Positions 4,818 through 22,866 of a DNA stretch of 24,000 nucleotides are shown piece by piece. Positions within the stretch are counted from its first letter, which is position 1, and every line of letters starts with the position of its first letter. Source of the DNA: Aminivibrio sp. (lineage in GTDB: Bacteria; Synergistota; Synergistia; Synergistales; Aminobacteriaceae); the NCBI RefSeq assembly GCF_050953645.1, contig NZ_JBMNMY010000001.1. The stretch is one strand, 5' to 3'. Both the position numbers and the translations under genes were made by a program. The notes beneath the pieces were generated by a model, which worked only from the letters and a program-made list of their open reading frames with translations, did not search any database and was not told where the DNA came from.

Positions 4818-6320
4818 TTACTGAAAGTCGTCCAGAACTCTTACGGCGGAGATTTTATCTCCCCATCCCCAGCCGTGAAGGGTCGGAACGTTTTGCCCGG
4901 CTCTGAAAGTGTTAAGAGGCTGAGTGTGTGTACCGGGGTTGATGTGCTCGTATATTTCAACCCTTACACTGCTTCCGACTTTAAACGAGCTGATCCTGTC
5001 GTTCCAGCTTTTGTTCGAATTTTCCATCATAACTTTCGTAAGATCAGGCTGGTGGTGGTTTGCCCTGACTATAAGATGTTCCCCTCCGTAGTCCACGTGC
5101 TCGAAGAACACCACCTCGTCCGGCTGGGGCTCAACCGCGTCGTCTGCAGGATCCCAGTCCTTTTCCCGTATCTTTATGGAGGAGATCCTGTCGCCCCACC
5201 CGCTGCCGTGGAGATTCCCGATTTCCGTGACCCCGTTTCCGTCTCCCCTGTGCTGGACGCAGCCTCCCTCGTAGTTGATATGGGTGCACACGTAGGCCTG
5301 GGCGTTTTTCCCGATCTTCAGGGAACTGATTTTGTCGTTCCAGGTTCCCTTGGCATCCCAGAGTGAAAGCTGTGTGAGATCGGGCAGGCTTTCCCCGACG
5401 GAATAAATTCTGTATTCTCCCAGGAAGTTTGTGTCCTTGAAGAATATTATCTCTTCATCCATGGGTATGATTTCCTGATCGTCCGTCTGTCCCGTACCGT
5501 CAGTTCCTCCGGATTCCCCGGTCTGATCGGACCCTCCGGTATCCCCTGTTCCGCCGGTTCCTCCTGTTTCTTCCGAACCGCCTGAGCGTTCGCTCTCCGG
5601 CGTCCAGCCCCTGGCGCGGACCTTCATCGAGGATATCCTGTCTTCCCACCCCGTACCGTGAAGGCTCATGATCTCCTTGTCTCCATGGCCGTCGCCGCTG
5701 AAGGAAATGCAGGGTCCCCCGTAATTGATGTCGGTGCACAGGTAGACAAGCGCGTCTTTTCCTATCTTCAGTGAGCTGATCCTGTCATTCCATGTTCTGC
5801 CGCTGGAAATGGGCCACTGTCTCAGGTCGGGATAATCTCCGACCGCATTCGGTGAAAGCATTGCTCCGTAGTAGTTGGCATGTTCGAAGATCAGAACCTC
5901 GTCAGGCCCCGGAACGACCCTCTGCAGGATCCTGACGGATGAGACCGTGTCTCCCCAGCCCATGCCGTGCAGGTCGGCAACAAGAAAATCGTTTGTTCCG
6001 TCTCCCTCGAAACTGATGCTGGCACCCCCGAAATTGGTGTTCTGGTACAGTATGACCCTGGCATTCTTTCCGACCGCCAGGGAACTGATCTGATCGTTCC
6101 ATTTTTCTCCTGTGTGAAGGTTCCACCGGGAAAGATCGGGAACGACGTTGTCATATGTGAAGCCCATGTTTCCTCCTTCAAAACCCGGACTCTCGAACAG
6201 GATCACCTGGAAATCGGCAGGATCCGGCGGATCCGCCGCATGCGCGGAAAACGGAATGGAAAGAAGGAAAACAATCAGAACCGCCGCCAGTGCTGCACCG
6301 GGAACACATCTGATCTTCAT
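4818..6320 (-). CDS. Secreted protein with four beta-gamma-crystallin (double Greek-key, Ca-binding type) domains and a G/T/S/D-rich central linker
   Basis: Has a signal peptide (...SIPFSAHA/ADPP). Eight Greek-key signatures [YF]xxxx[FY]xG are present (FESPGFEG, YQNTNFGG, FEHANYYG, FKDTNFLG, FEHVDYGG and others). Each is followed by an N/D-D-x-[IV]-S-S motif (WNDQISS, WGDTVSS, WNDRISS, WEDRISS, WNDKISS, WGDRISS, WNDRISS, WGDKISA). RBS AAGGAGGGG. Confidence 0.8.
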   Translation of the reverse strand: MKIRCVPGAALAAVLIVFLLSIPFSAHAADPPDPADFQVILFESPGFEGGNMGFTYDNVVPDLSRWNLHTGEKWNDQISSLAVGKNARVILYQNTNFGGASISFEGDGTNDFLVADLHGMGWGDTVSSVRILQRVVPGPDEVLIFEHANYYGAMLSPNAVGDYPDLRQWPISSGRTWNDRISSLKIGKDALVYLCTDINYGGPCISFSGDGHGDKEIMSLHGTGWEDRISSMKVRARGWTPESERSGGSEETGGTGGTGDTGGSDQTGESGGTDGTGQTDDQEIIPMDEEIIFFKDTNFLGEYRIYSVGESLPDLTQLSLWDAKGTWNDKISSLKIGKNAQAYVCTHINYEGGCVQHRGDGNGVTEIGNLHGSGWGDRISSIKIREKDWDPADDAVEPQPDEVVFFEHVDYGGEHLIVRANHHQPDLTKVMMENSNKSWNDRISSFKVGSSVRVEIYEHINPGTHTQPLNTFRAGQNVPTLHGWGWGDKISAVRVLDDFQ

Positions 6321-6568: not shown

Positions 6569-7729
6569 TTGGCGATCTACATGAACAACGGGGCCACGAC
6601 ATGGCCCAAGCCGGAGTGCGTGGCAAGGGCCATGTCGGACTTCCTCACCGGGTGCGGCGCAAACCTCGCTCGGGGAAGCGCATCGAAGCGCGACATGGGG
6701 ACCCTCGACCTGGTCTTCTCGTGCCGTGAGCTTCTGGCGTCCTTCTTCGGGGGATGGGAAGGCGACGCAAGGTATGTGACCTTCACCGCCAGCGTCACCG
6801 AATCCCTCAACGTGGTGTTCAAGGGATACCTCAAACCCGGAATGAAGGTCCTCATCTCGTCCATGGAGCACAACGCGGTCGTCAGGCCTCTCAGGCGCCT
6901 CGAGACCACGGGCGTATCCGTGGAGGTCCTTCCCTGCGACGAAGAAGGCTTCCTCCATCCATCAACAGTGGAGAAAGCACTGAACGGATCCGGGGTTTCC
7001 ATGGTGGCCCTCTCCCACTGCAGCAACGTGTGCGGCACGATACAGGACCTGGATTCCATAGCCGCCCTCTGCAGGGAGGCAGGAGTTCCCCTGGTCGCCG
7101 ACTGCGCACAGACTGCGGGCATTCTTCCGCTCCAAGCGGAAAAGCTCGGCCTCTCAGCCCTCTGTTTCACGGGCCACAAGGGCCTCCTCGGTCCTCAGGG
7201 AATCGGGGGCATTCTCTGGAACCCGGATTTCGCTGAAAAAACGGACTGGTTTGTTGAGGGAGGCACCGGAAGCTTCTCCCATCTCGAACTGCAGCCCGAC
7301 ACTCTGCCGGACAAGTTCGAGGCAGGCACCCCCAACCTTCCCGGGATAGCGGGGCTCTTTGCGGCCCTTGAATGGATAGGGGAAACGGGGATGGAGAATA
7401 TCAGGAGACGGGAAGAGGCACTCGGCGCCCTGCTTCTGGAAGGGCTGCTCTCCCTCCCCGGCGTTCAGCTCTCGGGGCGGAAGACTATGGACGGCCGACT
7501 GCCCGTGTTCGCGGTCAACTTCCGCGGCAGGGACAACGGAATTCTCGCGGCCAGGCTGTCAGATGAATGGGGTATCGAGACCCGTCCGGGCCTTCACTGC
7601 GCCCCGCTGGCCCACAAGACACTCGGAACATTCCCGGGAGGCGCGCTGCGCCTCAGCCCGGGGTGGTTCACCACCGTTGAAGAAGTGCAGAAGACGGTGG
7701 GAGCCCTGAAGGAAATACTCTCAACATGA
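6569..7729 (+). CDS. Class-V aminotransferase, NifS-like cysteine desulfurase / selenocysteine-lyase family
   Basis: TTG start 8 nt after GGAGGG. The N-terminus reads ..IYMNNGATTWPKPECV.. (IY-x-DNAATT-x-PKP pattern). Also present are SHCSNVCGTIQDL and the PLP-lysine region FTGHKGLLGPQGIGG. It lies immediately upstream of selD. Confidence 0.85.
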   Translation: MAIYMNNGATTWPKPECVARAMSDFLTGCGANLARGSASKRDMGTLDLVFSCRELLASFFGGWEGDARYVTFTASVTESLNVVFKGYLKPGMKVLISSMEHNAVVRPLRRLETTGVSVEVLPCDEEGFLHPSTVEKALNGSGVSMVALSHCSNVCGTIQDLDSIAALCREAGVPLVADCAQTAGILPLQAEKLGLSALCFTGHKGLLGPQGIGGILWNPDFAEKTDWFVEGGTGSFSHLELQPDTLPDKFEAGTPNLPGIAGLFAALEWIGETGMENIRRREEALGALLLEGLLSLPGVQLSGRKTMDGRLPVFAVNFRGRDNGILAARLSDEWGIETRPGLHCAPLAHKTLGTFPGGALRLSPGWFTTVEEVQKTVGALKEILST

Positions 7730-7749: not shown

Positions 7750-8796
7750 ATGAGACTCACTGAACTTTCCACTACAAGCGGCTGAGCTGCAAAAATAGGT
7801 CCGGCGGACCTGGAGAAGATCCTCAGGGATCTCCCGCTTGCACGTGATGAACGGATCATAAGCTCATGGGGCTCCGGCGAGGACGCCGCCATCTGGACCC
7901 TCGACGCCGAAAGGGCGGGGGTCCTCACGGTGGATTTCATTACTCCCGTATCCGATGACCCGTATACGTGGGGGCAGATCGCCGCGGCGAACTCCCTGAG
8001 CGACGTGTTCGCCATGGGAGGGAAACCCTTCGTGGCCCTGAACATTGTCGGCTTTCCCACGAAGGCCCTGGGTCTGGACGTGCTGAAGGAAGTCCTCAGG
8101 GGAGGGCAGGAAAAGGTCGCCGAGGCGGGAGGATTTCTTCTCGGCGGGCACAGCGTGGACGACAGGGAACCCAAGTACGGCCTCGTTGTCTACGGAGAAG
8201 TGCGGAGGGACTCCATCTGGAAGGTCACGGGCGCAAGGCCGGGCGACCTCCTTATCCTCACCAAGCCTGTAGGCACGGGGATCGTGGCTACGGCAGTGAA
8301 GGCGGACATGGTGGAGGATGAAGCCTCACGGACCGAGGCCGCCAGGTGGATGACGACGCTGAACGACCTGCCCCGGCGCATCTCCGAAGCGGAGTGCCGT
8401 TCCGTGAACGCCTGCACCGACGTCACCGGTTTCGGCCTCGCCGGCCATGCCCTGGACATGCTCTCGGGGGGAGGCCTGAATCTCACCCTGGGGATACGGA
8501 ATGTCCCCCTTCTTCCCGGCGTCCTGGATCTCGCATGCAGCGGCCTCATCCCGGCAGGGACCTACAACAACAGGGTCGCCTACGAGGACAGGGTGAAGGA
8601 CCCGGGAAAACACGACGAGATCCTTATGGACATGATCTTCGACGCCCAGACATCCGGAGGCCTCCTGCTCGCAATGGGCAGGGACGATGCGGAAAAGATG
8701 CTTCCGGTGATCCGCGGTTTCGGCTTTGAGCAGGCGGCAGTGATCGGACAGTTCTCCGAGGGGGACGGAACCATAGAAATAGCGGACAGCATCTAG
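7750..8796 (+). CDS. selD: Selenide, water dikinase (selenophosphate synthetase) with selenocysteine encoded by in-frame TGA at 7783-7785
   Basis: ATG at 7750 follows a GGAGGAGG RBS. The product MRLTELSTTSG-U-AAKIGPADLEKIL... is continuous in frame with the ORF-track fragment 7930..8796 (DFITPVSDDPYTWGQIAAANSLSDVFAMGGKP...). Total length is 348 aa, typical for SelD. Confidence 0.9.
7797..7811 (+). promoter_or_regulatory. SECIS-like hairpin downstream of the selD UGA
   Basis: AGGTCC-GGC-GGACCT forms a 6-bp GC-rich stem with a G-containing apical loop. It starts 11 nt after the TGA (7783-7785). Confidence 0.55.
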
Positions 8797-8908: not shown

Positions 8909-10000
8909 ATGAAAAGCATCAACGGAATTCTCATTTCCCGCTGGGGGCCGGCCATAACCGGTGCCTTCGTGGGAGCGGCGGCGTCACTGCTTGTGTACTT
9001 CGGAAATCCCGGAAACATGGGGATATGCGTGGCGTGCTTCACCCGCGACATCGCGGGAGCGCTGGGCCTTCACCGGGCCGGTGTTGTCCAGTATCTCAGG
9101 CCCGAGATACCCGGCTTCATCCTGGGGGCGTTTCTCGCTGCATTCCTCAGCCGGGAATACCAGCCCAGGTCCGGTTCCTCGCCAGTTGTACGGTTCTTCC
9201 TCGGTTTCTTCGCCATGATCGGCGCCCTGATCTTCCTCGGGTGCCCGTGGAGGGCCTACGCCCGTCTCGCAGGCGGCGACTGGAACGCTATTGCGGGAAT
9301 AGCCGGCCTCACGGCGGGGATAGGCCTGGGCATAGTCTTCCTGTGGAACGGGTTCAGCCTGGGCAGGGCGTCCAGGTCTCCCGCCTGGGCAGGGGCCGTT
9401 ATGCCCCTTGCCGCTGTCGCCCTCCTCGCCCTTCTTTACCTGAGGCCTCTTTTCGGTCCTGAGGGGACCGGCCCTGTCTTCTTTTCCAAGTCCGGACCGG
9501 GCGCTGCCGCGGCGCCTGTTCTCATATCCCTTGGCGTCGGGCTTGCCGTGGGGTGGATGGCCCAGAAAAGCCGCTTCTGCACCGTGGGCGCACTTCGGGA
9601 TCTCATCATGCTCAGGAACGGCCATCTCTTCAGCGGCGTGGCGGCCTTCCTCGTCTCGGCCTTCGTCGTTAACCTCCTTCTCGGCCAGTTCAGGCCCGGA
9701 TTTGAAAGCCAGCCCGTGGCCCACACGAACCAGCTGTGGAACTTCATCGGAATGGCCCTTTCCGGCCTCGCCTTCACTCTTGCGGGAGGCTGCCCGGGAC
9801 GCCAGATGATCATGTCCGGGGAAGGGGACGGTGACGCCTCCGTATTCGTTCTCGGCATGCTGGTGGGCGCAGCTTTCGCACACAATTTCTCACTGGCAAG
9901 TTCCGGTGCGGGGGTCACGTCCTTCGGTATGACGGCGACGGTGACCGGTCTCGTTTTCTGCCTTGCCGTGGGCCTGCTGTTCAGAATCAAACTGGATTAG
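8909..10000 (+). CDS. yedE: YedE-family selenium-metabolism membrane protein (YeeE/YedE sulfur/selenium transport-like)
   Basis: 363-aa polytopic membrane protein. It carries the conserved Cys-containing motifs GNMGICVACFTRD and KSRFCTVGALRD, plus GGCPGRQ. It pairs with yedF and sits next to selD. Confidence 0.85.
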   Translation: MKSINGILISRWGPAITGAFVGAAASLLVYFGNPGNMGICVACFTRDIAGALGLHRAGVVQYLRPEIPGFILGAFLAAFLSREYQPRSGSSPVVRFFLGFFAMIGALIFLGCPWRAYARLAGGDWNAIAGIAGLTAGIGLGIVFLWNGFSLGRASRSPAWAGAVMPLAAVALLALLYLRPLFGPEGTGPVFFSKSGPGAAAAPVLISLGVGLAVGWMAQKSRFCTVGALRDLIMLRNGHLFSGVAAFLVSAFVVNLLLGQFRPGFESQPVAHTNQLWNFIGMALSGLAFTLAGGCPGRQMIMSGEGDGDASVFVLGMLVGAAFAHNFSLASSGAGVTSFGMTATVTGLVFCLAVGLLFRIKLD

Positions 10001-10012
10001 GGGGAATGAGAA

Positions 10013-10231
10013 ATGTCTGAAGCTTTTGTAGTCGATGCACGGGGCCTTTCCTGCCCCCAGCCCGTTATGGAAACGCGGAAAGCCCTTGAGAAGCACACAG
10101 GAGGGCCTGTGGAAGTCCTCGTGGACACGGTCACGTCCCGGGAAAATGTCGCCCGCTACGGCGAAAGCCACGGGTGGAAGGCCGTGAAAGAGGAAACCGA
10201 TGACGGTTTCAAAGTAACCTTTACCCGCTGA
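10013..10231 (+). CDS. yedF: TusA/SirA-like sulfurtransferase-fold protein YedF
   Basis: 72 aa. VDARGLSCPQPVMETRKAL is the CPxP active-site motif of the TusA/SirA family. It starts 12 nt after the yedE stop. Confidence 0.85.
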   Translation: MSEAFVVDARGLSCPQPVMETRKALEKHTGGPVEVLVDTVTSRENVARYGESHGWKAVKEETDDGFKVTFTR

Positions 10232-10280: not shown

Positions 10281-10386
10281 CGTATCCCGTGCAGCGGCAG
10301 GGCGTTTTTGCTGTACAATAAGCGGGAAGCGATGTTTTCTGCTTGTTATATTTTACATACATGCCGCAGGCACAGGAGGCGAAGGG

Positions 10387-11058
10387 ATGGACAATTACTA
10401 CGCCGGGAAGCTCAACGCGGGCAACCTGCTTGAAGTGTACAACACGGGTATCGGCAGGGTACGGCAGTACCTGGAAGCGGAGATCGACTTCATCTGCAGC
10501 CGTCTTCACGCTCATGAGACGGTCCTCGAGCTCGGAACGGGGTACGGCCGTATTCTGAAGCGGATCGCCCCCTTCGCGAAAGCCGTGGTGGGGATCGACA
10601 TCTCAAATGATTCCATCGCCTTCGGAAGGGATTACCTCAAGGGATGCTACAACTGCACCGTTCTTGTTCTGGACGCCCACGGGATGGCGTTCGACGGGGA
10701 ATACGACGTGGTGCTCTGTCTCCAGAACGGCCTCTCGGCCATGAAAGGGGACCCGTACGACCTGGTGGAGCGAAGCATGAAGGCTCTCGTTCCCGGAGGA
10801 AGGGCGTTCTTCAGCACCTATGCCTCCGGCTTCTGGGAGTGGCGCCTCGAATGGTTCAAAGAGCAGGCCGGCAAGGGGCTTCTGGGTGAACTGGACATGA
10901 AGAAGACCGGCAAAGGCAGGATCGTCTGCAGTGACGGCTTCACCGCGACGACCTTTTCGGAGGAAGACCTCGAGGCCATGGGAAAAAAGACCGGCTGCCC
11001 CTACAGCCTGCAGATGGTTGACGACTCCAGTCTCTTTCTGATCATCGAGAAGAACTGA
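10387..11058 (+). CDS. Class-I SAM-dependent methyltransferase
   Basis: 223 aa. Motif I is VLELGTGYGRIL, followed by an acidic post-I residue (VVGIDIS) and the LQNGL motif. RBS AGGAGG. Confidence 0.8.
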   Translation: MDNYYAGKLNAGNLLEVYNTGIGRVRQYLEAEIDFICSRLHAHETVLELGTGYGRILKRIAPFAKAVVGIDISNDSIAFGRDYLKGCYNCTVLVLDAHGMAFDGEYDVVLCLQNGLSAMKGDPYDLVERSMKALVPGGRAFFSTYASGFWEWRLEWFKEQAGKGLLGELDMKKTGKGRIVCSDGFTATTFSEEDLEAMGKKTGCPYSLQMVDDSSLFLIIEKN

Positions 11059-11097
11059 GGTATCAAAAACGGCAGGGAAAAAAGAAACGGAACACAC

Positions 11098-11125
11098 TTG
11101 CTAAAATTTAACAGGGGTGTATAAT
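11098..11125 (+). promoter_or_regulatory. Sigma70-type promoter of the S-box leader
   Basis: TTGCTA (11098-11103), a 16-nt spacer, then TATAAT (11120-11125), about 38 nt upstream of the riboswitch P1 stem. Confidence 0.55.
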
Positions 11126-11162
11126 TAATCTGAACAATGAATGTGAAACTTTCCAACTGATA

Positions 11163-11270
11163 CTTTTATCCAGAGCGGCTGAGGGACTGGCCCTATGAAG
11201 CCCGGCAACCTGCCTGAAAAGGCGTGGTGCCAACACCAGCGCTCCGATTTATCGGGGCGGATGATAAGAG
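11163..11270 (+). promoter_or_regulatory. SAM-I (S-box) riboswitch aptamer
   Basis: CUUUUAUCCAGAGCGGCUGAGGGACUGGCCCUAUGAAGCCCGGCAACCUGCC...GGUGCCAACACCAGCG...GAUGAUAAGAG. All the hallmark conserved blocks of the S-box consensus are present (UUAUCnAGAG, GGnGGAGGGAnnGGCCC, UGAAnCCnGGCAACC, GGUGCCAA, GAUnAnAAG), along with P1 pairing UUAUC/GAUAA. Confidence 0.9.
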
Positions 11271-11319
11271 GAGAACCAGAAGCACGGATCTGTCTCGATC
11301 CATGCGCCATGGCGGCCAC

Positions 11320-11348
11320 AGGCCTCTCCTCGGAGAGGCCTTTTTTTT
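11320..11348 (+). terminator. Riboswitch expression-platform terminator (with competing antiterminator)
   Basis: AGGCCTCTC-CTCG-GAGAGGCCT is a 9-bp stem followed by T8. GAGGAGA (11268-11274), on the 3' side of P1, is complementary to TCTCCTC (11325-11331) in the 5' arm of the terminator, which is the classical S-box antiterminator arrangement. Confidence 0.8.
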
Positions 11349-11386
11349 GTCTTTTAAACCGGTTCGCTTGAACCGGAACACATTCC

Positions 11387-12047
11387 CCGAAGGAGGAAAT
11401 GCCCATGATCACGATCGATTATTCCAGGCGCCCCGAAGACTATTCCGAGCCCTTCGACCCCGAGGAACTGATGCTCAGCCGCATCAGCGGCGCCGCCAGG
11501 AGGGAGGTCGTCCGGAAAATGATACGGGAGGGCCGGATGAATGAAGTTCCCGAGGGATTTGACAACCCCGTCCTCAGCCACGACGAGAGGAGGGCCTGGG
11601 CCCGGTACAACCCGTCGTTCCTCGGAGGGGAATACCTGCCGCCGTGCCGGGAAGACGAAGTGGAGATCGCCAGGGTAACCATCCGGTCCACAACCTTCGA
11701 CGTCGTCTCCGTCCGGGCGAAATCCGGAAAAGACCGCATCAGCTACAGGATAAACGACGAGTACAACGGCGATAACCTCGGCGAAAAGCACACGCGCACC
11801 TCGGTCCGCCCCCTCACCCTCGGGAGTTTGCTGGATTTCCTCATCGGCGCGTGGAGCCTTTACGAAAGCGTGGAATGGAACTACCCCGGTGACCTGGAAG
11901 GGCAGCTCGGGTTCTTCTGGGGAGAGTCACAGTTCTACCCGGAGTTCGACGAGGCCCTGAGGGAAAAGGTGACGGAGGGGTTTTACGCAAATCAGAAAAG
12001 GGAGGAATAAATCCATGTACACGGGCAGGGACACAATTGAGTGGCTG
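11387..12047 (+). repeat. Tandem-duplication copy 1 (RBS + A1 + intergenic + first 33 nt of B)
   Basis: Aligns base for base with 13542-14211. By eye, identity is roughly four in five positions and highest at both ends, for example GGAGGAATAAAyCCATGTACACGGGCAGGGACAC. Confidence 0.8.
11405..12010 (+). CDS. Hypothetical protein A1 (unknown family; paralog of A2)
   Basis: AGGAGG (11391-11396) lies 8 nt before ATG 11405. The track's earlier ATG at 11399 is TTG in the paralogous copy, so the second ATG is the conserved start. About 201 aa, charged, with no TM segment or signal peptide. Confidence 0.75.
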   Translation: MITIDYSRRPEDYSEPFDPEELMLSRISGAARREVVRKMIREGRMNEVPEGFDNPVLSHDERRAWARYNPSFLGGEYLPPCREDEVEIARVTIRSTTFDVVSVRAKSGKDRISYRINDEYNGDNLGEKHTRTSVRPLTLGSLLDFLIGAWSLYESVEWNYPGDLEGQLGFFWGESQFYPEFDEALREKVTEGFYANQKREE

Positions 12048-13055
12048 TACGGGAAACAGCTCCAGGTCGACGACGAATGGTCGGTCATCACGGAGAACGG
12101 ATTCACATGGTGGGCCGGTGATCACGCACAGACGGTGGAGGTCGTCGGCGAGGCCGACGGGCCTTCGGGCGAGAGGGGGTATTACATCTCCATCCGGACG
12201 GAGCTGCTGAAGGTCAGGAGCCTGGACCCCGACGCCCTGAAAGCCGTCAGCCTGACGCTCATGCCCTTCGCATCCATGGCGGGGCCGGTTTTCGACCCCC
12301 GCAGGGGAACCCTGGACCTCTGCTCATGGGCCCTCGTCTACGAGGGGATCAGCCCGTGGATGAACGTCCTCCTCAGCGTCGCCGCAGCCATCCAGATCTA
12401 CGAAGCCCGCAGGCTGGGGGACAATTTTTCCGCCTTCGGCATGGAAAACGCCGTCAGTGCCCATCCGAAGAACGGGGTCCGCAGGGAACACGACGAAATC
12501 GCCGGGCTGGTCCCGTCGCTTATCCAGCCCACAGGGAAAGAGCCGTCCCGGTGGCCCGACGACGAATTCCAGAAAGCGGCGGACCTGCTCGGGCAAAATC
12601 CCCCCGTCCTCATGGCAAGTGCCGGAGGGCCCGGGCTGTCAGCCGAGTTCCCCTTCGGCACCTTTTCCTCCCTCTGCAGGATGGCTGCCGATCAGCCACA
12701 CCCGTTCTACGGAAACGGCCTGCTGGTCACCCATTTCTTCCCCGTTTCCGGAAAGAAGGGAGAGGAGGAAAAATGGATCCGGAAGGCCCTCTCCCTGAAT
12801 GAGCCTCAACTGGGCTCCGACCCCGCCGGATACGGCTTCGGAAGCTATGCCTACAGGGACGGCATGATCGTCTACGCGGCGTTTTTCCCGAACATTCTCC
12901 ACAGCCCCGGCTTCCTGCTGAACCTCTTCCTCTCCTGCGGGGCGCGGGGAATGGCCATGAACAGGGTACTTGCGGGAGTCACGGGGGAAGTTGACCCCTT
13001 CAGCATCTCCCGGAGCGCTGCCGAACGGTTTCTGGGTGAGACGGGGGAAAACTGA
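12015..13055 (+). CDS. Hypothetical protein B (346 aa, unknown family)
   Basis: GGGAGG RBS; the start is 4 nt after the A1 stop. The ORF is long and uninterrupted with host-like codon usage. I could assign no motif. Confidence 0.75.
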   Translation: MYTGRDTIEWLYGKQLQVDDEWSVITENGFTWWAGDHAQTVEVVGEADGPSGERGYYISIRTELLKVRSLDPDALKAVSLTLMPFASMAGPVFDPRRGTLDLCSWALVYEGISPWMNVLLSVAAAIQIYEARRLGDNFSAFGMENAVSAHPKNGVRREHDEIAGLVPSLIQPTGKEPSRWPDDEFQKAADLLGQNPPVLMASAGGPGLSAEFPFGTFSSLCRMAADQPHPFYGNGLLVTHFFPVSGKKGEEEKWIRKALSLNEPQLGSDPAGYGFGSYAYRDGMIVYAAFFPNILHSPGFLLNLFLSCGARGMAMNRVLAGVTGEVDPFSISRSAAERFLGETGEN

Positions 13056-13108
13056 GGCACAGGGCGCGTCGGAATATGTGAAGAGATTACGGCACAGGAG
13101 GGAACCGA

Positions 13109-13492
13109 ATGAGGGATATGATCCGCAGGCTGATCGAGGACGCAGGGCTTACGTTCGGCGAGGACGTAAGCGACGGGAACGGCGGCATAGCACGGTACGG
13201 CGGTCGGCGTGAGGCGGGCGGCTGGGTTGTGGCCGGAAACAGCGCCAGACAGGTCAGGCAGGGCATCGCCGAACTGAGGAAGCGGGACGAGAAGCGGTTC
13301 GTCAGGAAGGCGCTGGTCGACAACGGCCTCCGCCTCTCCTTCCACGAAAGAAGCATCCCGAAAAACGGGGTCCTGGTCAACAGCATCCTCTACAAGGGGT
13401 GGAACGACGACGGGGAGAATGTCGTCTCGGGATCATGCCTCGGCGAGGTGCTGGAATCCATCGAGAAATGGCAGGAAGAGGCCCGGGTATGA
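13109..13492 (+). CDS. Hypothetical protein C (127 aa, unknown family)
   Basis: AGGAGGG RBS 6 nt upstream of the ATG; same strand as the operon. Confidence 0.65.
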   Translation: MRDMIRRLIEDAGLTFGEDVSDGNGGIARYGGRREAGGWVVAGNSARQVRQGIAELRKRDEKRFVRKALVDNGLRLSFHERSIPKNGVLVNSILYKGWNDDGENVVSGSCLGEVLESIEKWQEEARV

Positions 13493-13541
13493 CAGGTGTT
13501 TTCCAGCGGCCTGGGAGATTCAGGGATACCCGTAAACAACA

Positions 13542-14211
13542 CCGAAGGAGGAATTGCCCATGAGCACCATCGATTATTCCAGGCGCCCCGAAGGCTATTT
13601 TGAGCCCTCCGACCCGGGGGAACTGATGCTCAGCCGCATCACCGGCGCCATCAGGCGGGAGGCCGTCAGGAAAATGGTACGGGAAGGCGGAATGGACGCC
13701 GTTCCCGAGGGATTCGGCAACGAGGAGCTCAGCGAAGGGCACAGGAGGGCCTGGGGCCTGATCCACCCCATGTGCATGGGAGGGGAGTTCCTCCTTCCCT
13801 GCGAACCCGGAGAGCTGGAAATCGCCCGGCTGACCATAAGGTCCACCACCTACGACGTACTCTCCGTCCGGGCGAAACGGGTGAAAAACCGCATCCGCAT
13901 CAGGGTCGACGACGAATACGACGGCGAGACCCTCAATAAAAAACACTCGTGCATCTCTGTCCGGCCCCTTACCCTCGGGCGTCTGATCGACCTCGTGATC
14001 GTCGGGTGGGACGTGTTCGAATGCCTGGAACGCAACTACCCCGGAGACCTGGAAGGGCAGCTCGGATTCTTCTGGGCAGAGTCCCGGTTCTACCCCGACT
14101 TCGACCAGGCCCTGCGGGAGAGGGTGACGGAGCATTTCCGCGCACACCACGAAGAGGAAAAAGTGGAGGAATAAACCCATGTACACGGGCAGGGACACGA
14201 TCGAATGGTTT
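13542..14211 (+). repeat. Tandem-duplication copy 2 (RBS + A2 + intergenic + B' 5' end)
   Basis: See copy 1. Similarity stops abruptly after codon 10-11 of B/B'. Confidence 0.8.
13560..14174 (+). CDS. Hypothetical protein A2 (paralog of A1)
   Basis: Same RBS context as A1 (CCGAAGGAGGAAnTGCCCATG). The protein aligns end to end with A1. Shared blocks include TIDYSRRPE, ELMLSRI, VPEGF, IAR-TIRSTT-DV-SVRAK, SVRPLTLG and NYPGDLEGQLGFFW. Confidence 0.75.
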   Translation: MSTIDYSRRPEGYFEPSDPGELMLSRITGAIRREAVRKMVREGGMDAVPEGFGNEELSEGHRRAWGLIHPMCMGGEFLLPCEPGELEIARLTIRSTTYDVLSVRAKRVKNRIRIRVDDEYDGETLNKKHSCISVRPLTLGRLIDLVIVGWDVFECLERNYPGDLEGQLGFFWAESRFYPDFDQALRERVTEHFRAHHEEEKVEE

Positions 14212-14268
14212 CTCGAACAGCCGGAATTGACGCAGGCATATTCAAGAAGGAGGAGATGCCGGGGATGA
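14179..14268 (+). pseudogene. B' : 29-codon remnant/leader retaining the first 10 codons of gene B
   Basis: MYTGRDTIEW is identical to the B N-terminus, with 3 synonymous differences, and the sequence then diverges. Its TGA (14266-14268) overlaps the ATG (14265-14267) of the next ORF as ATGA. Confidence 0.5.
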
Positions 14269-14666
14269 CATTGAAGCTCGGAAAAAAAGGCCTGAGCAGG
14301 GTGTGGATGGAGGAAATCGAAGGGGAGTACGTTGTGAGCGGGTTCGTCAACAAGGACAGCAGGAACTGGGAAAAAACAGAGGTCTCCCGGCGCTTCGAAA
14401 CCCTGGAGGAAGCAAACGGCTTCATTGAATGGGCCTGGCCCAAAATGGTGTTTCTGACCATGGACGAGTACTTTGACCCCGAACAGCCCGTGCTGTACGA
14501 GATTTTTACAGCTGATGGGGAAAGCGGGGAAGAAAAACCGGTAAGCCTGTCCCACTCGGCATGGAGATCAACGCTCATCGCCAGGCAGGCGCTTAGGAAT
14601 GCCGGAGAGGGGAAACGGGCTGTCATCAGGGGATCGGACGGATCGGTACGAATAATTGACGGATAA
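14265..14666 (+). CDS. Hypothetical protein D (~133 aa, unknown family)
   Basis: AAGGAGGAG lies ~9 nt upstream of ATG 14265. The track's start at 14205 lacks an RBS and overlaps B'. ATG 14256 is a possible alternative start. Confidence 0.6.
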   Translation: MTLKLGKKGLSRVWMEEIEGEYVVSGFVNKDSRNWEKTEVSRRFETLEEANGFIEWAWPKMVFLTMDEYFDPEQPVLYEIFTADGESGEEKPVSLSHSAWRSTLIARQALRNAGEGKRAVIRGSDGSVRIIDG

Positions 14667-14681
14667 GGGGCGTACGCCCCT
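14666..14681. repeat. Perfect 16-nt palindrome AGGGGCGTACGCCCCT between D and E
   Basis: Read directly from the sequence. It overlaps the last base of the D stop codon and has no T-run after it. Confidence 0.6.
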
Positions 14682-14698
14682 CACAAGGAGGAGTCACA

Positions 14699-15133
14699 AT
14701 GGAACATAAGTACAGGATCATTGACGGAAACGGGAAATTCTACAGAGGAGAGGAAAACGGCGGGGGATGGACGGAAGTGATGGATGAAGCAAAAGTATAC
14801 GACAGCCAAAAAGAACTGCCGGCCGCACTGCTGAACGACGAGGGGGAAGTGTGCATGAAGAAGAAGATCCGCTTTGTGGGCATAAGCGGTTATACATCTA
14901 TCCGCTACTTCCCGGAGCGCTCCGGGAATGGAGGAAGCGACGGAGGGGAAAAAGACATAACCGCAGCCCCATACTGTGTTATCAAGGGAAAGGTGTCCGG
15001 GATCAGGGAAGCAGAACCGGACGACCCGATCTACACCCGCGGGTTCATAATCGGGGGAACTTTTTCGAGAATGGCTTCGAAAAGAAATACGGAGCCAATT
15101 TCCGAAGAGGAGAAGAGGCACAGGGCAGAATAA
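14699..15133 (+). CDS. Hypothetical protein E (144 aa, unknown family)
   Basis: AAGGAGGAG RBS 5-6 nt upstream of the ATG; this is the last ORF before the AT-rich spacer. Confidence 0.65.
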   Translation: MEHKYRIIDGNGKFYRGEENGGGWTEVMDEAKVYDSQKELPAALLNDEGEVCMKKKIRFVGISGYTSIRYFPERSGNGGSDGGEKDITAAPYCVIKGKVSGIREAEPDDPIYTRGFIIGGTFSRMASKRNTEPISEEEKRHRAE

Positions 15134-15402
15134 AAGTATAGCGGTCCTGCGAACAGGGCGAATGCCTAAAGAGGTTCCAATCGATTGATTCCAGAGGTCT
15201 GGAGAAATTCATCTAAATTTGTTTTAATAGTCAGCCTCTAGTTGAACTTTAAACACCATTTGGGTAGGTAGTCGCGAAATAATGAAAACTGTATGTATTC
15301 AAGATATTTGCCTCGAAAAAGAATCCTAAAAACGAAAATTTCGGCAATAAGTGGTAGTATAGAAAAAACATTCCTTTTATTTCATTCATGGGGAGAGAGA
15401 TC

Positions 15403-17259
15403 ATGCTCAGGGAAGCCATAGAAAAAATACTGAAGGAATGGTTAGTAGCTAAAAGAGAACCCATAAAGGGGAACTCACTTGCTGCTTTTATTCGGGATGA
15501 GTTCCCGGAGGTAGTCAGGCAAGTGCTAGGTGAAAGAAGTTCTGACTATAAAATCAGAAGCAGTCCTGGTGCGGGGAACTGGGCCGATGTCCCTTGGCTT
15601 GCGATTCTTAATCCCAAAATTGCGGCAAATACTCAAGAGGGTATAAATCCGGTTTTTCTTTTTTCTGCTGACGGTTCTGGAGTTTATCTTTCGCTGAATC
15701 AAGGTACAAGCAAGCCCAAGCAAATTCTTGGTTCACGAAAAGCCAAAGAACAAATTGAACTTATTAAGGCACAGTCTATCGTGAAAATACCTCGGTTGAA
15801 AGGCTGGGGGTTGGATTCAATTGATCTGAAAGCTAATTCACCTCTAGCAAAATCTTACGAAGAGGCCAATATTCAAGCTAGGTTCTACCCTGCAGATGAG
15901 CTTCCATCCGAAGAAATTCTCGTTGATGATCTGCTTTCCCTTGTTGATATCTACAGTCAATCGGAAGAATTTCTCACAGGATTATTGAATGATAATGGGG
16001 GAAAAGGGACTGACATCATTTCTCCTCCTGTTTTATCGCCAAGTTTCAAAAATGGAGGATTGGCAATAATATCTCTACATAAGCCCTTTCTCCTACTTGC
16101 TGGTATTTCAGGCGTGGGCAAAACCCGCTTCGTAAGAGAACAAGCGAAGGTGCATAATGTCAACCTGCTCAACTATTGCCTTGTTTCTGTTCGCCCTGAC
16201 TGGCACGAACCCTCCGATCTTTTAGGGTATATTTCGAGGATCGGGCAACAGGGTCCACGGTACATGGCGACTGATTTTCTTCGCTTCCTTGTCTCTGCGT
16301 GGAAAGATGCTGTGGACACTGTTTCCGAAGGACAAATTGTATGGAAAGAGATAGAAAAGATGGTTCCCTTCTGGTTGTGTCTTGACGAGATGAACCTTGC
16401 CCCTGTTGAACAGTATTTCGCGGATTACCTCTCCGTTCTTGAAACGAGGGAGTGGTCCGAGGGGGGCTATTTTTGTGACCCCCTTCTGAAGGCCTCCGTC
16501 TTGCATCAACTTGATGAAACCGGGTTGAATGAATTTTGGCGAGACGTAGGTCTTCAAGGAGATGGGCCGAAAGAAGATGGTTTACGAAGTTTCTTTTTGA
16601 GTGAAATTGAGGGTATTCCGCTTCCGCCTAACCTCATCGTCGCCGGAACGGTTAATATGGATGAAACTACCCACAGTTTCTCCCGAAAGGTGATTGATCG
16701 GGCCCTGACCCTGGATTTTGGGGAGTTTTTCCCCAACGATTTCGGAGCTTTTTTCGAGCCTACGACAACGTTGCGCACCTTGGGAATTCCAAAAATCACC
16801 CATGTACGGAAGAAAGACCTAGCGGTTGTGCCCGCCGACCCTGAGGGTGAAAAAACGGTGGCCTTTTTATCATCGGTAAACCAAGTCCTGGAAGGGACAC
16901 CTTTCCAGCTTGCCTTCAGGTCATTAAACGAAGCCCTTTCGCTCGTCCTCTGTTTTCTTCCCAAAGGCGACGGCGAATTGCAAGCCGTCTGGGACGATTT
17001 TCTGATGACAAAAGTGCTGCCGAGGATTGAGGGCGACGAGGACACTCTCGCTTTTGACGGCGATAAAAGCCTTCTCACAGAGCTTTCCGAAATTCTTCGG
17101 GAAGAGCTTCCCTTGATCTGGACTGACGGGAGAAAGGACCTTCTCAGGATGGAAAAGAACGGAGATGTCCTTTTCCCGGTTGAATGCCGATCCAAGCGAA
17201 AAATTACCTGGATGCAGGGTCGTCTGAAAAAAAGTGGATTTACTAGTTTCTGGCCTTAG
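15403..17259 (+). CDS. McrB-like AAA+ NTPase with N-terminal DUF3578 (MrcB_N-type) DNA-reader domain
   Basis: The N-domain motif is SSPGAGNWADVPWLAILNP...INPVFLFSADGSGVYLSLNQG. Walker A is LLLAGISGVGKT (about 16099-16122) and Walker B is WLCLDEMN. The McrB-type GTVNMDETT..SRKVIDRA segment is also present. GGGGAGAG RBS precedes ATG 15403; the track's ATG at 15388 is the alternative start. Confidence 0.85.
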   Translation: MLREAIEKILKEWLVAKREPIKGNSLAAFIRDEFPEVVRQVLGERSSDYKIRSSPGAGNWADVPWLAILNPKIAANTQEGINPVFLFSADGSGVYLSLNQGTSKPKQILGSRKAKEQIELIKAQSIVKIPRLKGWGLDSIDLKANSPLAKSYEEANIQARFYPADELPSEEILVDDLLSLVDIYSQSEEFLTGLLNDNGGKGTDIISPPVLSPSFKNGGLAIISLHKPFLLLAGISGVGKTRFVREQAKVHNVNLLNYCLVSVRPDWHEPSDLLGYISRIGQQGPRYMATDFLRFLVSAWKDAVDTVSEGQIVWKEIEKMVPFWLCLDEMNLAPVEQYFADYLSVLETREWSEGGYFCDPLLKASVLHQLDETGLNEFWRDVGLQGDGPKEDGLRSFFLSEIEGIPLPPNLIVAGTVNMDETTHSFSRKVIDRALTLDFGEFFPNDFGAFFEPTTTLRTLGIPKITHVRKKDLAVVPADPEGEKTVAFLSSVNQVLEGTPFQLAFRSLNEALSLVLCFLPKGDGELQAVWDDFLMTKVLPRIEGDEDTLAFDGDKSLLTELSEILREELPLIWTDGRKDLLRMEKNGDVLFPVECRSKRKITWMQGRLKKSGFTSFWP

Positions 17260-19712: not shown

Positions 19713-21221
19713 CTGCTGTCCAAAATAAATCGAAATCTGAAATAGTACCCTGAATTTCCAGGGCTTTGCGGAGCGGTTTTAGACAGATTTGAAAACAGGT
19801 CCCCTGTTTTCCTGAACCTCGATAATTAAATCGGCTGTCCAACTTCCGACAGGGTGAATTTCAACTGTTCCGTCTCCGGCACAATGGGCGGCGTAGCAGT
19901 CCAAAAAAACGTCCGCACTCCTCTTTGTCCCTTTCTATTTTGCAACAAACAGTAAAGCCCGATAGGTAAAGAGGTCCAGCCGGAGCATGGTCGCCATGTT
20001 GGAAAAGGACCATCCCGCTTTCGAGAGATGATGCAGCCACTTGATCACCAGTAGAGAAACAAGGTGAATTGTCCGTTCCCGAAGGGAGCGGACAAGAGAA
20101 GGTACCTGGGTGATCAGGGTTGTCCAAATCTGGATGCAAAGGGCGTTCTCGCTCTCACCTATGAAGGTTTTGACCTTCAGGTTCTGCTTCAGCGTCTTGA
20201 AGAAGAGCTCGATCTCCCACCGGTCCCTGTAGATCTCACCTATGGTGCTCGCCCCGAACCTAAGATGATTGGTGAGAAGAACGATATTCTCTCCTGTTTC
20301 AGGGTTCTCGACAGTGATCCTGCGGAGCAGGCCCGGATATCTCTCCTTCATCCCCGTTCTGGTAAGACGGACGATCTCGTCGGAAAGGACATGCCTGTTT
20401 CGGGGCGGAGTACGGACTTCCTGCACGGAATAGACGCAGTTGTCCTTCATCCGGGTGACGAAAAATACGCCCCGGTCCGTCCAGGACTGATACTGAGCGA
20501 AGTCCACGTATCCCCTGTCCAGGGCAACGATGGAGCCGGGTTTGAGGGCAAGTTCCTTCGACATCCGGCTGTCGTGGGTCTTCGCATCCGTGATGGAAAC
20601 GAAGGAGGGCATGTAGTCGTCATGATCCAACAGTACGTGGACCTTTACACCGCCCTTGGCCCTCCGGAATTCCGCCCAGGGAAAAAGAGACAGGCAGAGG
20701 CTGATGGTCGTGGAGTCAAAGGACAGCAGCTTGTTCTTGAACCGGAACTTTTTCTTCCGGCATCCCAAAGAACCCGTAGAGCGGAAATGATCCGACAGCC
20801 TCCAGAACAGCTCCTCGAAAAGCTCCGCGGGACGATGATTGTTTGCATAAGAGAGGGTGGATCTCCTCGGATACTCCTTTATCCCCAGGTGAACGAGTTT
20901 TCCGTTACAGCAGCTGAGGCCGTTAACGATCTCCCTGAGAGAATCCGCTCCGGCCAGATGACAGAAAAGCATTGAGATGAGCTGCGTCTTCGACCGGAAT
21001 CCTTTGGCGTGACGCTCTGCGCCCCATTTGGCGACCAGGTTGTCAAAGTTCACGGCTGTGAAAATCTCAGAAAGCAATTGACTGAACAGGCTCGCAGGCT
21101 TTAGCATTAGTGTGCCCCCCTTTGGGTTTCTTTGAGGTGTTGTTGTGTTGGCGCATTAATAATATCTCAAGGGCCTCTCAGGGGGCATTTAATTTTCTCA
21201 AAAACCTATTTTGGACAAGAG
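19713..21221 (-). mobile_element. Putative IS4-family element (~1.5 kb); boundaries tentative
   Basis: An inverted repeat, TGTCCAAAATA at 19717-19727 and TATTTTGGACA at 21207-21217, brackets the transposase gene. There is extra partial matching outward (CTnnTGTCC). I could not identify a target-site duplication. Confidence 0.4.
19935..21107 (-). CDS. IS4-family DDE transposase (DUF4372 N-domain + DDE_Tnp_1)
   Basis: 390 aa. The N-terminus ...FSQLLSEI....F..LV.K.GAERHAKGF....QLISMLFCHLAG.DSLREI..GL matches the IS4-type DUF4372 region. DDE-region blocks include VALDRGYVDF and RWEIELFFKTLKQ. Confidence 0.85.
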   Translation of the reverse strand: MLKPASLFSQLLSEIFTAVNFDNLVAKWGAERHAKGFRSKTQLISMLFCHLAGADSLREIVNGLSCCNGKLVHLGIKEYPRRSTLSYANNHRPAELFEELFWRLSDHFRSTGSLGCRKKKFRFKNKLLSFDSTTISLCLSLFPWAEFRRAKGGVKVHVLLDHDDYMPSFVSITDAKTHDSRMSKELALKPGSIVALDRGYVDFAQYQSWTDRGVFFVTRMKDNCVYSVQEVRTPPRNRHVLSDEIVRLTRTGMKERYPGLLRRITVENPETGENIVLLTNHLRFGASTIGEIYRDRWEIELFFKTLKQNLKVKTFIGESENALCIQIWTTLITQVPSLVRSLRERTIHLVSLLVIKWLHHLSKAGWSFSNMATMLRLDLFTYRALLFVAK

Positions 21222-21230
21222 CGGTGTCTG

Positions 21231-22316
21231 TCAACCCACTTGTCGCTTTTCCGGGGTTAAAGTTTCCCGTGCTCTTTCATCCTTCTCAGGATTGAGCCAG
21301 ACCACTTTCTCCTCCTCCAGGTTCCTCACCGGACGGGTATTCCATCGTTCCGGGAATTTCCGCTTCGCTTCCTCAAGCACCTGCTTCCTCGCCGCCAGAA
21401 TAGCCGCAGATTCTCCCCGGTGACGCTGGCCCGGAGTCACGTACTTCAAGGCGCTGTGGCGGTGGATCTCGTTGTACCAGTGAACGAAGCCCAACGTCCA
21501 CTCCCTTGCCCCTTCAAGGCTCTCAAATCCGTAGGTCGGATATTCAGGGCGATATTTCAGTGTCCGGAAGAGGGACTCCGAGTAGGCGTTGTCGTCGCTT
21601 GTCCTCGGCCTGCTGTACGACCCGGATATGCCAAGTTTCTCCATCGTGGCCCTGAAGGTCGATGCCTTCATGGGGCTTCCGTTGTCGGAGTGGAGCACCA
21701 GAGGTTTCTTGTTCCTCCAGAGCGCCTCTTTGAGATATGCCTTCCGGATCAGCGTCTTCGCACACTCTCCGCTTTCCTCTTCATGGACCTCCCAGCCGAC
21801 GATATACCGGCTGAAGATGTCCACGATCATGTAGAGGTAGTAGTATTTGCCCCGGACGGGCGAAGTCAAATAGGTGATGTCCCAGGACCACACCTGGTCG
21901 GGGGCCGTTGCTCCATGCGATGCCGGAACCTTCCTGTTCGGGCCCTTTGCCTTGCCTCTGGTGTGCTGCTGGTTCTTTTCGCGCAGTATCCTGTAGAACG
22001 TCGATTCGGACGCCAGCCATTGCCCTTTGTCCGCAAGGTCCGCCACTATCTGGGCAGGCGGCTTGCTTGCATATTCCGGACTGTCGGCGATTTCGAGCAC
22101 TCTGTGCCTCTCGTCGTCGCTCAGGGTTCCCGTGGGCTTCCTGCGCTCGGCGTCCTTCCTCCCGTCTTCCTTTACTATGTTTTTCCCTCTGCCCCTGAGC
22201 CATCTCTGTCGGGTGCGGATGGTGATTCCAAGTTCACGGCACGCCATGAACAGCCTTGCTCCGTTTCTGTGGGCTTCGTCGACCAGCTCCACTGCTTTCA
22301 GGCGAGGAGCGGCCAC
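21231..22316 (-). CDS. IS3-family transposase OrfB (HTH_21 + rve integrase core, DDE)
   Basis: WSWDITYL..YLYMIVDIFSRYIVGW (D), LVLHSDNGSPM (D) and AYSESLFRTLKYR (E). GTG start as called by the ORF track. Confidence 0.9.
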   Translation of the reverse strand: MAAPRLKAVELVDEAHRNGARLFMACRELGITIRTRQRWLRGRGKNIVKEDGRKDAERRKPTGTLSDDERHRVLEIADSPEYASKPPAQIVADLADKGQWLASESTFYRILREKNQQHTRGKAKGPNRKVPASHGATAPDQVWSWDITYLTSPVRGKYYYLYMIVDIFSRYIVGWEVHEEESGECAKTLIRKAYLKEALWRNKKPLVLHSDNGSPMKASTFRATMEKLGISGSYSRPRTSDDNAYSESLFRTLKYRPEYPTYGFESLEGAREWTLGFVHWYNEIHRHSALKYVTPGQRHRGESAAILAARKQVLEEAKRKFPERWNTRPVRNLEEEKVVWLNPEKDERARETLTPEKRQVG

Positions 22317-22320
22317 CCTA

Positions 22321-22824
22321 TCAGTCTTCCTCGCCGTCCCCCCAGATCGCCTGCGCTTTTTTTCTCAGCGTCAGCAGCGCCGCCGTTTCCGCCAGCGCCC
22401 TTTCCTTCCTCAACAGCTCCTTTTCAAGGGCCTTGTTCCGTTTCTTCTCGCTACGGATCTCTTTCTGCAGTTCCTGGCGTTTTCGGAGATCCCGCTGATT
22501 CGCCTGAAGACACGCCTCCCGCCACTCTTCTATCTCCGCGGGGAAGATCCCTTTGCTGCGGCAGTACTCTCCAAGTTCGGCCTCGTTGAGCGCGTGGGTC
22601 TCCAGAACGATCAGGAACTTGTCCTCGGAGCTCCAGCGGTCGGGCTGCTCTCCGTTTCCGGGAGCGGCTTCGCCTCCGCTTCGCACTTCTTCCCGCCATT
22701 TCGCCAGGGTCACGTAGGAGACTCCGCTTTCCTCTGCCAGCCTCATGATGGGAACGTTCTCCGGCGGCATCATCTTCCGCACAAGGGCTTCCTTGAATTC
22801 AGGGCTGTATCTTTTCACCTTCAC
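22321..22824 (-). CDS. IS3-family transposase OrfA (HTH_Tnp_1 + leucine-zipper region)
   Basis: KRYSPEFKEALVRKMMPP....I..LAEESGVSYVTLAKWR is followed by a coiled-coil region (QELQKEIRSEKKRNKALEKELLRKERALAE). GTG start after GGGAGG. An A7 run sits near the 3' end. Confidence 0.85.
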   Translation of the reverse strand: MKVKRYSPEFKEALVRKMMPPENVPIMRLAEESGVSYVTLAKWREEVRSGGEAAPGNGEQPDRWSSEDKFLIVLETHALNEAELGEYCRSKGIFPAEIEEWREACLQANQRDLRKRQELQKEIRSEKKRNKALEKELLRKERALAETAALLTLRKKAQAIWGDGEED

Positions 22825-22866
22825 CGCACCTCCCGAGAGCTATTGTCAAATCTGGTGTATGGGTCA

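Follow-up and report, generated by a model that had tools for sequence, protein, structure and literature searches.

S-adenosylmethionine (SAM) riboswitches are among the best-mapped bacterial regulons, and the genes behind OFF riboswitches usually raise or spare the ligand. In Bacillota, the SAM-I (S-box) leaders of met, cys, and metK genes share a four-helix aptamer, a P1 helix that serves as anti-antiterminator, competing antiterminator and terminator structures, and a placement between the promoter and the first gene. We analyzed a leader of the same architecture in a 24,000-nucleotide stretch of DNA from Aminivibrio sp. (contig NZ_JBMNMY010000001.1; this whole stretch is called the window below). 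It precedes six co-oriented open reading frames (ORFs), A1-B-C-A2-D-E, the first of which belongs to an uncharacterized family of ∼200-aa proteins, here called the A family. Unlike its Bacillota counterparts, the leader resides in a Synergistaceae host, its cargo consists of six ORFs of no known family, and leader and genes together behave as one mobile unit. We consider it probable that the leader is a normal S-box OFF switch belonging to a mobile module that is induced by SAM starvation and concerned with SAM supply or its protection.

The aptamer was the sole Rfam match above gathering score in the window. It lies at 11163-11270 (+) and aligned with the SAM-I covariance model RF00162 over its full length (model positions 1-108 of 108) with just two noncanonical pairs, scoring 88.7 bits against a gathering score of 44.4 (E 3.6e-20). 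P1 is formed by 11163-11170 paired with 11263-11270. A sigma-70-like promoter, TTGCTA-16-TATAAT (11098-11125, +), matches the consensus at 10 of 12 positions and is the best of three promoter-like sites in 10300-15500; it is weak evidence alone, because shuffled sequences gave a mean of 1.7 such sites. On the 3′ side of P1, GAGGAGA (11268-11274) can pair with TCTCCTC (11325-11331) to form an antiterminator (11268-11331, +) that encloses a hairpin at 11282-11305. This helix is the minimum-free-energy fold of 11258-11333 (−30.6 kcal/mol; duplex energy −13.8), the co-transcriptional intermediate that exists before the 3′ arm of the terminator has been made. Three of its nucleotides also belong to the 3′ strand of P1, with which it competes, as it does with the 5′ arm of an intrinsic terminator (11320-11348, +), which consists of a 9-bp stem at 11320-11341 with a CTCG loop (hairpin −18.7 kcal/mol) and a T8 run. 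By sequence and energy analysis, terminator and antiterminator are mutually exclusive and coupled to P1. Between the terminator and the ribosome-binding site (RBS) sits a 7-bp palindromic hairpin, CCGGTTC-GCTT-GAACCGG (11359-11376, +), which may act in mRNA stability, as a processing site, or as an operator. The RBS itself, AAGGAGG (11390-11396, +), lies 8 nt 5′ of the ATG of A1 at 11405.

A reading made from the DNA letters alone (the sequence-only reading) had claimed a complete SAM-I leader with the anatomy of an OFF switch. That claim stands in all its parts: the covariance match reaches twice the gathering score; promoter-like site, antiterminator, terminator, second hairpin, and RBS lie where they had been placed; and the predicted antiterminator forms in the 11258-11333 fold and excludes the terminator. 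The primary sequence strongly supports the view of this leader as an ordinary SAM-I transcription-termination OFF switch and a new member of RF00162. With SAM bound, P1 would be locked, GAGGAGA could not pair with TCTCCTC, the terminator at 11320-11348 would form, and transcription would stop. When SAM is low, the antiterminator would form, and RNA polymerase would read into A1-B-C-A2-D-E. The cassette would then be expressed when SAM is short.

We compared the leader with those of related loci (numbered L001 upward). RF00162 matches of 87-93 bits precede A homologs in Aminivibrio pyruvatiphilus (L001 and L003), in a run-assembly contig (L002), in two close relatives of the window (L004 and L008), in a Synergistaceae metagenome-assembled genome (MAG; L009), and in L041. 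Identity to the window is 99% for L008 and 82% for the A. pyruvatiphilus proteins, and the A protein of L041 is 44% identical to A1. From the promoter region through the RBS, the leader alignment is near-invariant among A. pyruvatiphilus, L002, L004, and L009. The terminator is invariant in the homologous leaders, and the A. pyruvatiphilus promoter at the equivalent position reads TTGACC-16-TATGAT. The palindromic hairpin is kept in L001, L002, and L004, with its loop changed from GCTT to GCCT, and is absent from L041. In the L041 aptamer, P3 and P4 are kept through compensatory changes, and the GAGGAG/CTCCTC antiterminator design is combined with a different terminator stem sequence.

Homology among the cassettes starts at ∼11087, and the sequence further upstream is unrelated in the window, L002, and L001. 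The upstream genes differ accordingly: selenium genes and a methyltransferase in the window and L004, TctAB/nagA-type genes in L002, and another set in L001. Downstream, homology with L004 stops at 15136, before the McrBC-like genes of the window; the position taken by McrBC in the window is occupied in A. pyruvatiphilus by a DUF3427 helicase-nuclease. On these alignments, the A gene has carried its promoter, aptamer, terminator, and RBS along into three or more genomic contexts, represented by five further loci.

In an Aminivibrio MAG (L088, 4762-6234), the same S-box leader (92.9 bits) and the start ATGCCCATG lead straight into B-C, an arrangement that resembles, at the sequence level, an exact excision of A. 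The gene for a DUF3427/NgoFVII/PLD helicase-nuclease is found 3 kb upstream of that leader.

To explain an S-box leader in front of such ORFs, the sequence-only reading had offered two possibilities: that an accessory cassette had inserted between the leader and its original met gene, so that its regulation is accidental, or that expression of the cassette is tied to the SAM pool. To the first we now give almost no credence. In its favor is only that the window has no met genes downstream. In the window, L001, L004, L009, and L041, the cassette is not followed by any met gene; homology begins at the promoter; and the leader moves with A into different contexts. Moreover, distant A homologs carry other classes of SAM riboswitch (see below). 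Since a severed leader would not travel with inserted genes, the orphaned-leader explanation is refuted. The same comparisons removed the proposed tie to the adjacent restriction module, and we rejected McrBC as a functional partner because the synteny is conserved neither in L004 nor in A. pyruvatiphilus.

A1 (201 aa; 11405-12010, +), B (346 aa; 12015-13055, +), C (127 aa; 13109-13492, +), and A2 (204 aa; 13560-14174, +), an A1 paralog with 64% identity, are real genes, given the many homologs (192 for A1 and 233 for B) and the ratios of nonsynonymous to synonymous substitution rates (dN/dS) of 0.25-0.36 for the four relative to their A. pyruvatiphilus orthologs (A1, 0.36; B, 0.29; C, 0.31). 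Overall, dN/dS values of A1, B, C, and A2 were 0.25-0.5. C follows B in L001, L009, and L088. The last two ORFs are less widespread. D (153 aa; 14205-14666, +) is lineage-specific with only two close homologs, and because these are 135-136 aa long, its true start is probably the ATG at 14256. E (144 aa; 14699-15133, +), where synteny with L004 and L008 stops, is poorly conserved and has 15 relatives in 1.8 billion representatives, most of which match just the C-terminal ∼50 aa. Within residues ∼80-140 of E, these C-terminal ∼50 aa match stand-alone proteins of ∼60 aa and a 907-aa protein with seven copies, which points to a small uncharacterized repeat domain.

Copies of the RBS motif GAAGGAGGAAnTGCCCATG stand in front of A2 in the window and of B in L088. 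In A. pyruvatiphilus (L001, 1238-1262), the second A paralog is preceded by the same motif and by a hairpin related to 11359-11376; before A2 in the window (13493-13560), the RBS motif alone survives. This suggests that hairpin and RBS were duplicated along with the gene.

None of the six proteins had a match in Pfam, NCBIfam, PADLOC, or PHROGs. The known Met/Cys/SAM families that lie downstream of classical S-box leaders were not found among A1-E in Pfam or NCBIfam, so the earlier statement that no downstream ORF resembles a Met/Cys/SAM gene is correct at the level of sequence.

The structural model of B (predicted local distance difference test score, pLDDT, 90.1) has two halves, each with the order alpha-beta-beta-beta-alpha-beta-beta-alpha. 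In a Foldseek search, the model matched 2plg (probability 0.99, target-normalized TM-score 0.52) and also VecA, CesT, ExsC, and SycE. The fold matches have target-normalized TM-scores of 0.5-0.6, E ≥ 0.008, only half of B aligned, and 9-19% identity, and a Pfam scan of B gave no YbjN match. Judged from the model, B looks like a tandem type III secretion chaperone/YbjN-like fold, a resemblance at the level of fold and not of family membership. The halves of B would share the chaperone fold with type III secretion chaperones and YbjN-like proteins; B differs in having no sequence similarity to them (9-19% identity, all E > 0.001), in the tandem duplication of the domain, and in having no secretion system nearby. 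The AlphaFold model of A (pLDDT 89.7; predicted template modeling score, pTM, 0.86) consists of an N-terminal helical region and an alpha/beta core. About 25 positions of the A alignment are invariant, and polar residues occupy many of these (R9, E85, E87, R90, S95, T97, D99, R115, D118, E119, Y120, and N159), which suggests a specific site for a ligand or partner.

We then asked how widely SAM control accompanies these proteins. A profile of the A family, searched against one genome per GTDB species, gave 80 loci (81 counting L005), mostly in Burkholderiales and other Proteobacteria and also in Acidobacteriota, Chloroflexota, Planctomycetota, and Synergistaceae. An Rfam scan of 15 arbitrary, taxonomically diverse loci found 10 riboswitches: two SAM-I, six SAM-I/IV (RF01725), and two SAM-II (RF00521). 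We built our own covariance model from seven Rfam-verified SAM-I/IV aptamers and ran it on the 81 loci; 29 contained a SAM-I/IV aptamer, always on the A strand and always upstream of A. Rfam scans of the remaining loci added one SAM-II match and confirmed L008. Altogether, 35 of the 81 loci carry a SAM riboswitch (3 SAM-I, 29 SAM-I/IV, and 3 SAM-II), a density of about one per 20 kb of sequence at A loci. Each of the 35 riboswitches is co-oriented with A, and in 34 cases it precedes A. Every major A subclade contains loci with a riboswitch. No more than 160 nt separates the end of the aptamer from the A start in at least nine proteobacterial loci; in L070, the aptamer is followed by a clear intrinsic terminator, and in L011, a helix sequesters the RBS.

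Because SAM-II has no structural relationship to the SAM-I clan, the A family came under SAM control independently at least twice. Taken as sequence evidence, this distribution strongly supports the view that the A family belongs recurrently to the SAM regulon in many phyla: its genes follow SAM-I riboswitches in Synergistaceae and SAM-I/IV or SAM-II riboswitches in Proteobacteria, Acidobacteria, and other phyla. It likewise lends strong support to the core of the second explanation, that expression is tied to the SAM pool. For B, the survey had another outcome. B occurs together with A only in Synergistaceae, L006, L007, and L077, and B as an independent member of the SAM regulon was rejected: L088 is the only locus of eight in its favor, and there the A-cassette leader remains after the apparent loss of A.

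The genes around A connect the family to SAM synthesis. We clustered ORFs within 3.5 kb of A in 73 nonredundant loci, counting as recurrent any family present in at least three loci; Pfam was also run on the remaining larger ORFs (200-440 aa), and 150 singleton ORFs were scanned. The recurrent families included DUF3293 (at least 13 loci, always co-oriented with A), SAM synthetase (metK; 9 loci, always co-oriented), and an N-formylglutamate-amidohydrolase-like protein (7 loci). The metK genes are genuine: they have the Pfam N, M, and C domains, score 404-505 bits to TIGR01034 against a cutoff of 309, and reach 454 bits to E. coli MetK structures. A SAM riboswitch precedes metK in L033, L038, L042, L048, and L069. 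The operon orders are SAM-I/IV-DUF3293-metK-A in L038, SAM-I/IV-metK-...-A in L033 and L069, SAM-II-metK-A in L048, and SAM-II-A-metK in L028. In having a riboswitch before a genuine metK, these operons resemble the proteobacterial SAM-I/IV and SAM-II metK operons. Unlike those classical operons, they add A and DUF3293 and adjoin tRNA genes, integrases, a resolvase, or PglZ, and at many A loci the riboswitch appears, from gene order, to control A alone. The sequence-only reading had set the operon apart from Met/Cys/SAM metabolism. This holds for the ORFs of the window, which remain unmatched, and is too strong for the family, which has a genuine metK beside A in nine loci. With that linkage, the hypothesis we now put first is a role in SAM supply.

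Several side observations concern the same neighborhoods. Just downstream of A, several proteobacterial loci encode small stand-alone HD_4 (SpoT/RelA-type HD hydrolase) proteins (L086, 5901-6467; L005, 14023-14466; and homologs in L010 and L084). An AAA_5/MoxR-like ATPase of ∼470 aa recurs near A (L040, 4277-5792; L028, 8019-9416; and L056); in L040, a SAM-II match stands immediately before the ATPase gene, which may thus be another unrecognized member of the SAM regulon. In L095 (2399-8413), where B occurs without A, the neighbors of B are a MetK-like gene that is degenerate (98 bits to TIGR01034; only the N and M domains), a gene for a terminase large subunit, and a VWA_CoxE gene. The A ORF of L069 appears ∼280 aa longer at its C terminus, and the extension has no Pfam domain; a Pfam scan of the long A-containing ORFs of L042, L069, L065, and L030 likewise found no domains, and these may be overextended ORF calls. 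In a Dechloromonas MAG (L074, 8319-10461), a group II intron (RF02012 and RF00029) and three tRNA genes adjoin an A-family gene.

The operons with metK also raise the question of whether the leader belongs to A at all. It might have served an island metK, with A, B, and DUF3293 being unrelated accessory proteins that kept the leader after metK was lost; SAM control would then be inherited and not functionally meaningful. Operons of the order riboswitch-(DUF3293)-metK-A exist as this would require, the predicted fold of B is that of a generic protein-binding chaperone, more than half of the A loci and most B loci have no riboswitch, and the neighborhoods are mosaic. Nevertheless, we judge this explanation quite improbable. 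The association involves three aptamer classes, with SAM-II structurally unrelated to the others, and extends to every major A subclade; many A genes have a leader immediately before them whose expression platform is intact; in L028, A comes between the riboswitch and metK; and the Synergistaceae leader is strongly conserved to the RBS across contexts. An unneeded leader should decay, and such decay is not seen.

The mosaic, island-like surroundings of A bear on what the SAM response might be for. Immediately upstream there are tRNA genes, and the other neighbors include tyrosine integrases, a serine resolvase, transposases, WYL-WCX regulators, HigBA-like, HipA, and AbiEii genes, a reverse transcriptase, and McrBC, mixed with housekeeping genes. 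In L069 (22-6437), a PglZ-domain gene of the bacteriophage exclusion (BREX) type lies just upstream of the SAM-I/IV-metK-A operon, and in L094 (2789-9269), B without A lies between an N6_N4 DNA methyltransferase and an McrBC pair. The A family had no match in PLSDB, INPHARED, or IMG/VR, and B had none in IMG/VR, so plain phage or plasmid cargo was rejected; the absence of A from these collections indicates a chromosomal island as the vehicle.

Phage T3 SAMase is described as cleaving SAM and inhibiting MetK, by which the phage escapes Type I restriction-modification and BREX (10.1101/2023.02.27.530186). The A modules resemble this contest in that the SAM pool is at stake, MetK is involved, and the modules occur in island and defense contexts. 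The parallel is conceptual only, as no SAM lyase, phage gene, or defense phenotype is tied to the cassette.

It suggests an alarm for SAM depletion, in which the riboswitch would sense SAM lowered by a phage and switch on A and B (elsewhere a spare MetK) as a defense or "anti-anti-defense" module, and A and B would neutralize a phage factor, refill the SAM pool, or abort infection. We consider such an alarm speculative and unlikely. It fits the McrBC genes in the window and near another A locus, the DUF3427 helicase-nuclease, the BrxR/WYL regulators, the AbiEii, HipA, and HigBA-like genes near A loci, the position of PglZ in L069 and of B in L094, and the attack of T3 SAMase on SAM and MetK; an island-borne metK under a SAM switch would also suit a backup supply. 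Against it, A-E have no PADLOC match (in PADLOC-DB v2, only the adjacent McrB-like and McrC-like genes matched, as PDC-M26A/B), there is no fixed defense partner, and the McrBC linkage is lost in the closest relative. McrBC itself is not known to use SAM. The flanks include ordinary housekeeping genes, phage involvement has no indication here, and induction at the level of transcription is perhaps too slow in a lytic infection.

A related proposal, that the modules (B, DUF3293, and MetK with A) guard the SAM pool within defense islands, with the riboswitch as a sensor of infection, and counter phage SAM lyases or MetK inhibitors or refill the pool so that SAM-dependent restriction and BREX keep working, seems to us slightly more doubtful again.

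The favored reading is that of a module responding to SAM starvation and supporting its host's own SAM supply. Given OFF-switch logic, the linkage of A to MetK, and the adaptor-like fold of B, the simplest view is that the cassette answers low SAM by supporting or protecting SAM synthesis; the role in SAM supply itself is drawn from regulon logic and the metK linkage. A, with the chaperone-like B, would help to restore or protect the SAM pool, perhaps by assisting or protecting SAM synthetase or through an undescribed SAM- or methionine-sparing activity. The target of A may be MetK, SAM or a by-product, or an external inhibitor.

Several results weigh against this reading. The Synergistaceae cassettes have no metK. 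A fold search of PDB and BFVD with the A model found no significant structural neighbor, and the A profile matched no solved chain among PDB sequences. By its model, B resembles a protein-binding adaptor rather than an enzyme. No riboswitch was detected at 46 of the 81 A loci, in about 12 of which the contig ends too near A for a call, and only one of the eight B-only loci (L088) has one. Among the SAM-I/IV calls, 22 of 29 come from our own covariance model, whose E-values are rough, and the SAM-II matches exceed the gathering score by just 1-4 bits.

The remainder of the window places the cassette in a variable region. On the 5′ side of the leader is a selenium-utilization cluster comprising a class V aminotransferase (6569-7729), selD for selenophosphate synthetase (7750-8796), YedE (8909-10000), and a TusA-like gene (10013-10231), followed by a class I SAM-dependent methyltransferase (10387-11058). 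selD is probably a selenoprotein gene, because an in-frame TGA (7783-7785) occupies the catalytic Cys/Sec position (STTSG*AAKIGP). A homolog of the methyltransferase (64% identity) adjoins the riboswitch-A unit of L041 on the opposite strand (1315-2001, −); its presence near both units may mean that the two share an insertion hot spot or are functionally linked to the enzyme. Farther upstream, 4818-6320 (−) encodes a secreted 500-aa protein with repeated beta/gamma-crystallin/Inhibitor_I36 domains and a Gly/Thr/Asp-rich linker, and its crystallin-type repeat region is rearranged relative to L004. On the 3′ side of E are an McrB-like gene (MrcB_N) and an McrC-like gene (DUF2357 and PDDEXK_7), followed by several insertion sequence (IS) transposases: a DDE_Tnp_1/DUF4372 transposase (19935-21107, −), an IS3-type orfA/orfB pair (22824-21231, −), and a Mutator/IS256-type transposase (22867-23892, −). 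This IS cluster (19935-23892), directly after the McrBC-like pair, marks the region as a variable island.

Searchable literature on DUF3293, SAM riboswitches in islands, SAM lyases in defense, and MetK with BREX held no description of the A family or of its association with SAM riboswitches, which is not proof of absence. What appears to be new is a regulon: a mobile cassette of families for which databases hold no model, wired to three aptamer classes and linked to island-borne metK. To a specialist in riboswitches or SAM, we expect this to come as a moderate surprise. The anonymous A family is now open to direct tests: its inducing signal, low SAM, is known, and the genes occur in a cultured organism, Aminivibrio pyruvatiphilus (C8D99_1202-1205). 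That a family with no Pfam or NCBIfam model is wired to three classes of SAM aptamer and recurs beside metK points to a gap in the current picture of SAM biology. Since the modules are mobile and lie among defense and mobile-element genes, they may connect SAM homeostasis to the conflicts of hosts, phages, and mobile elements over SAM.

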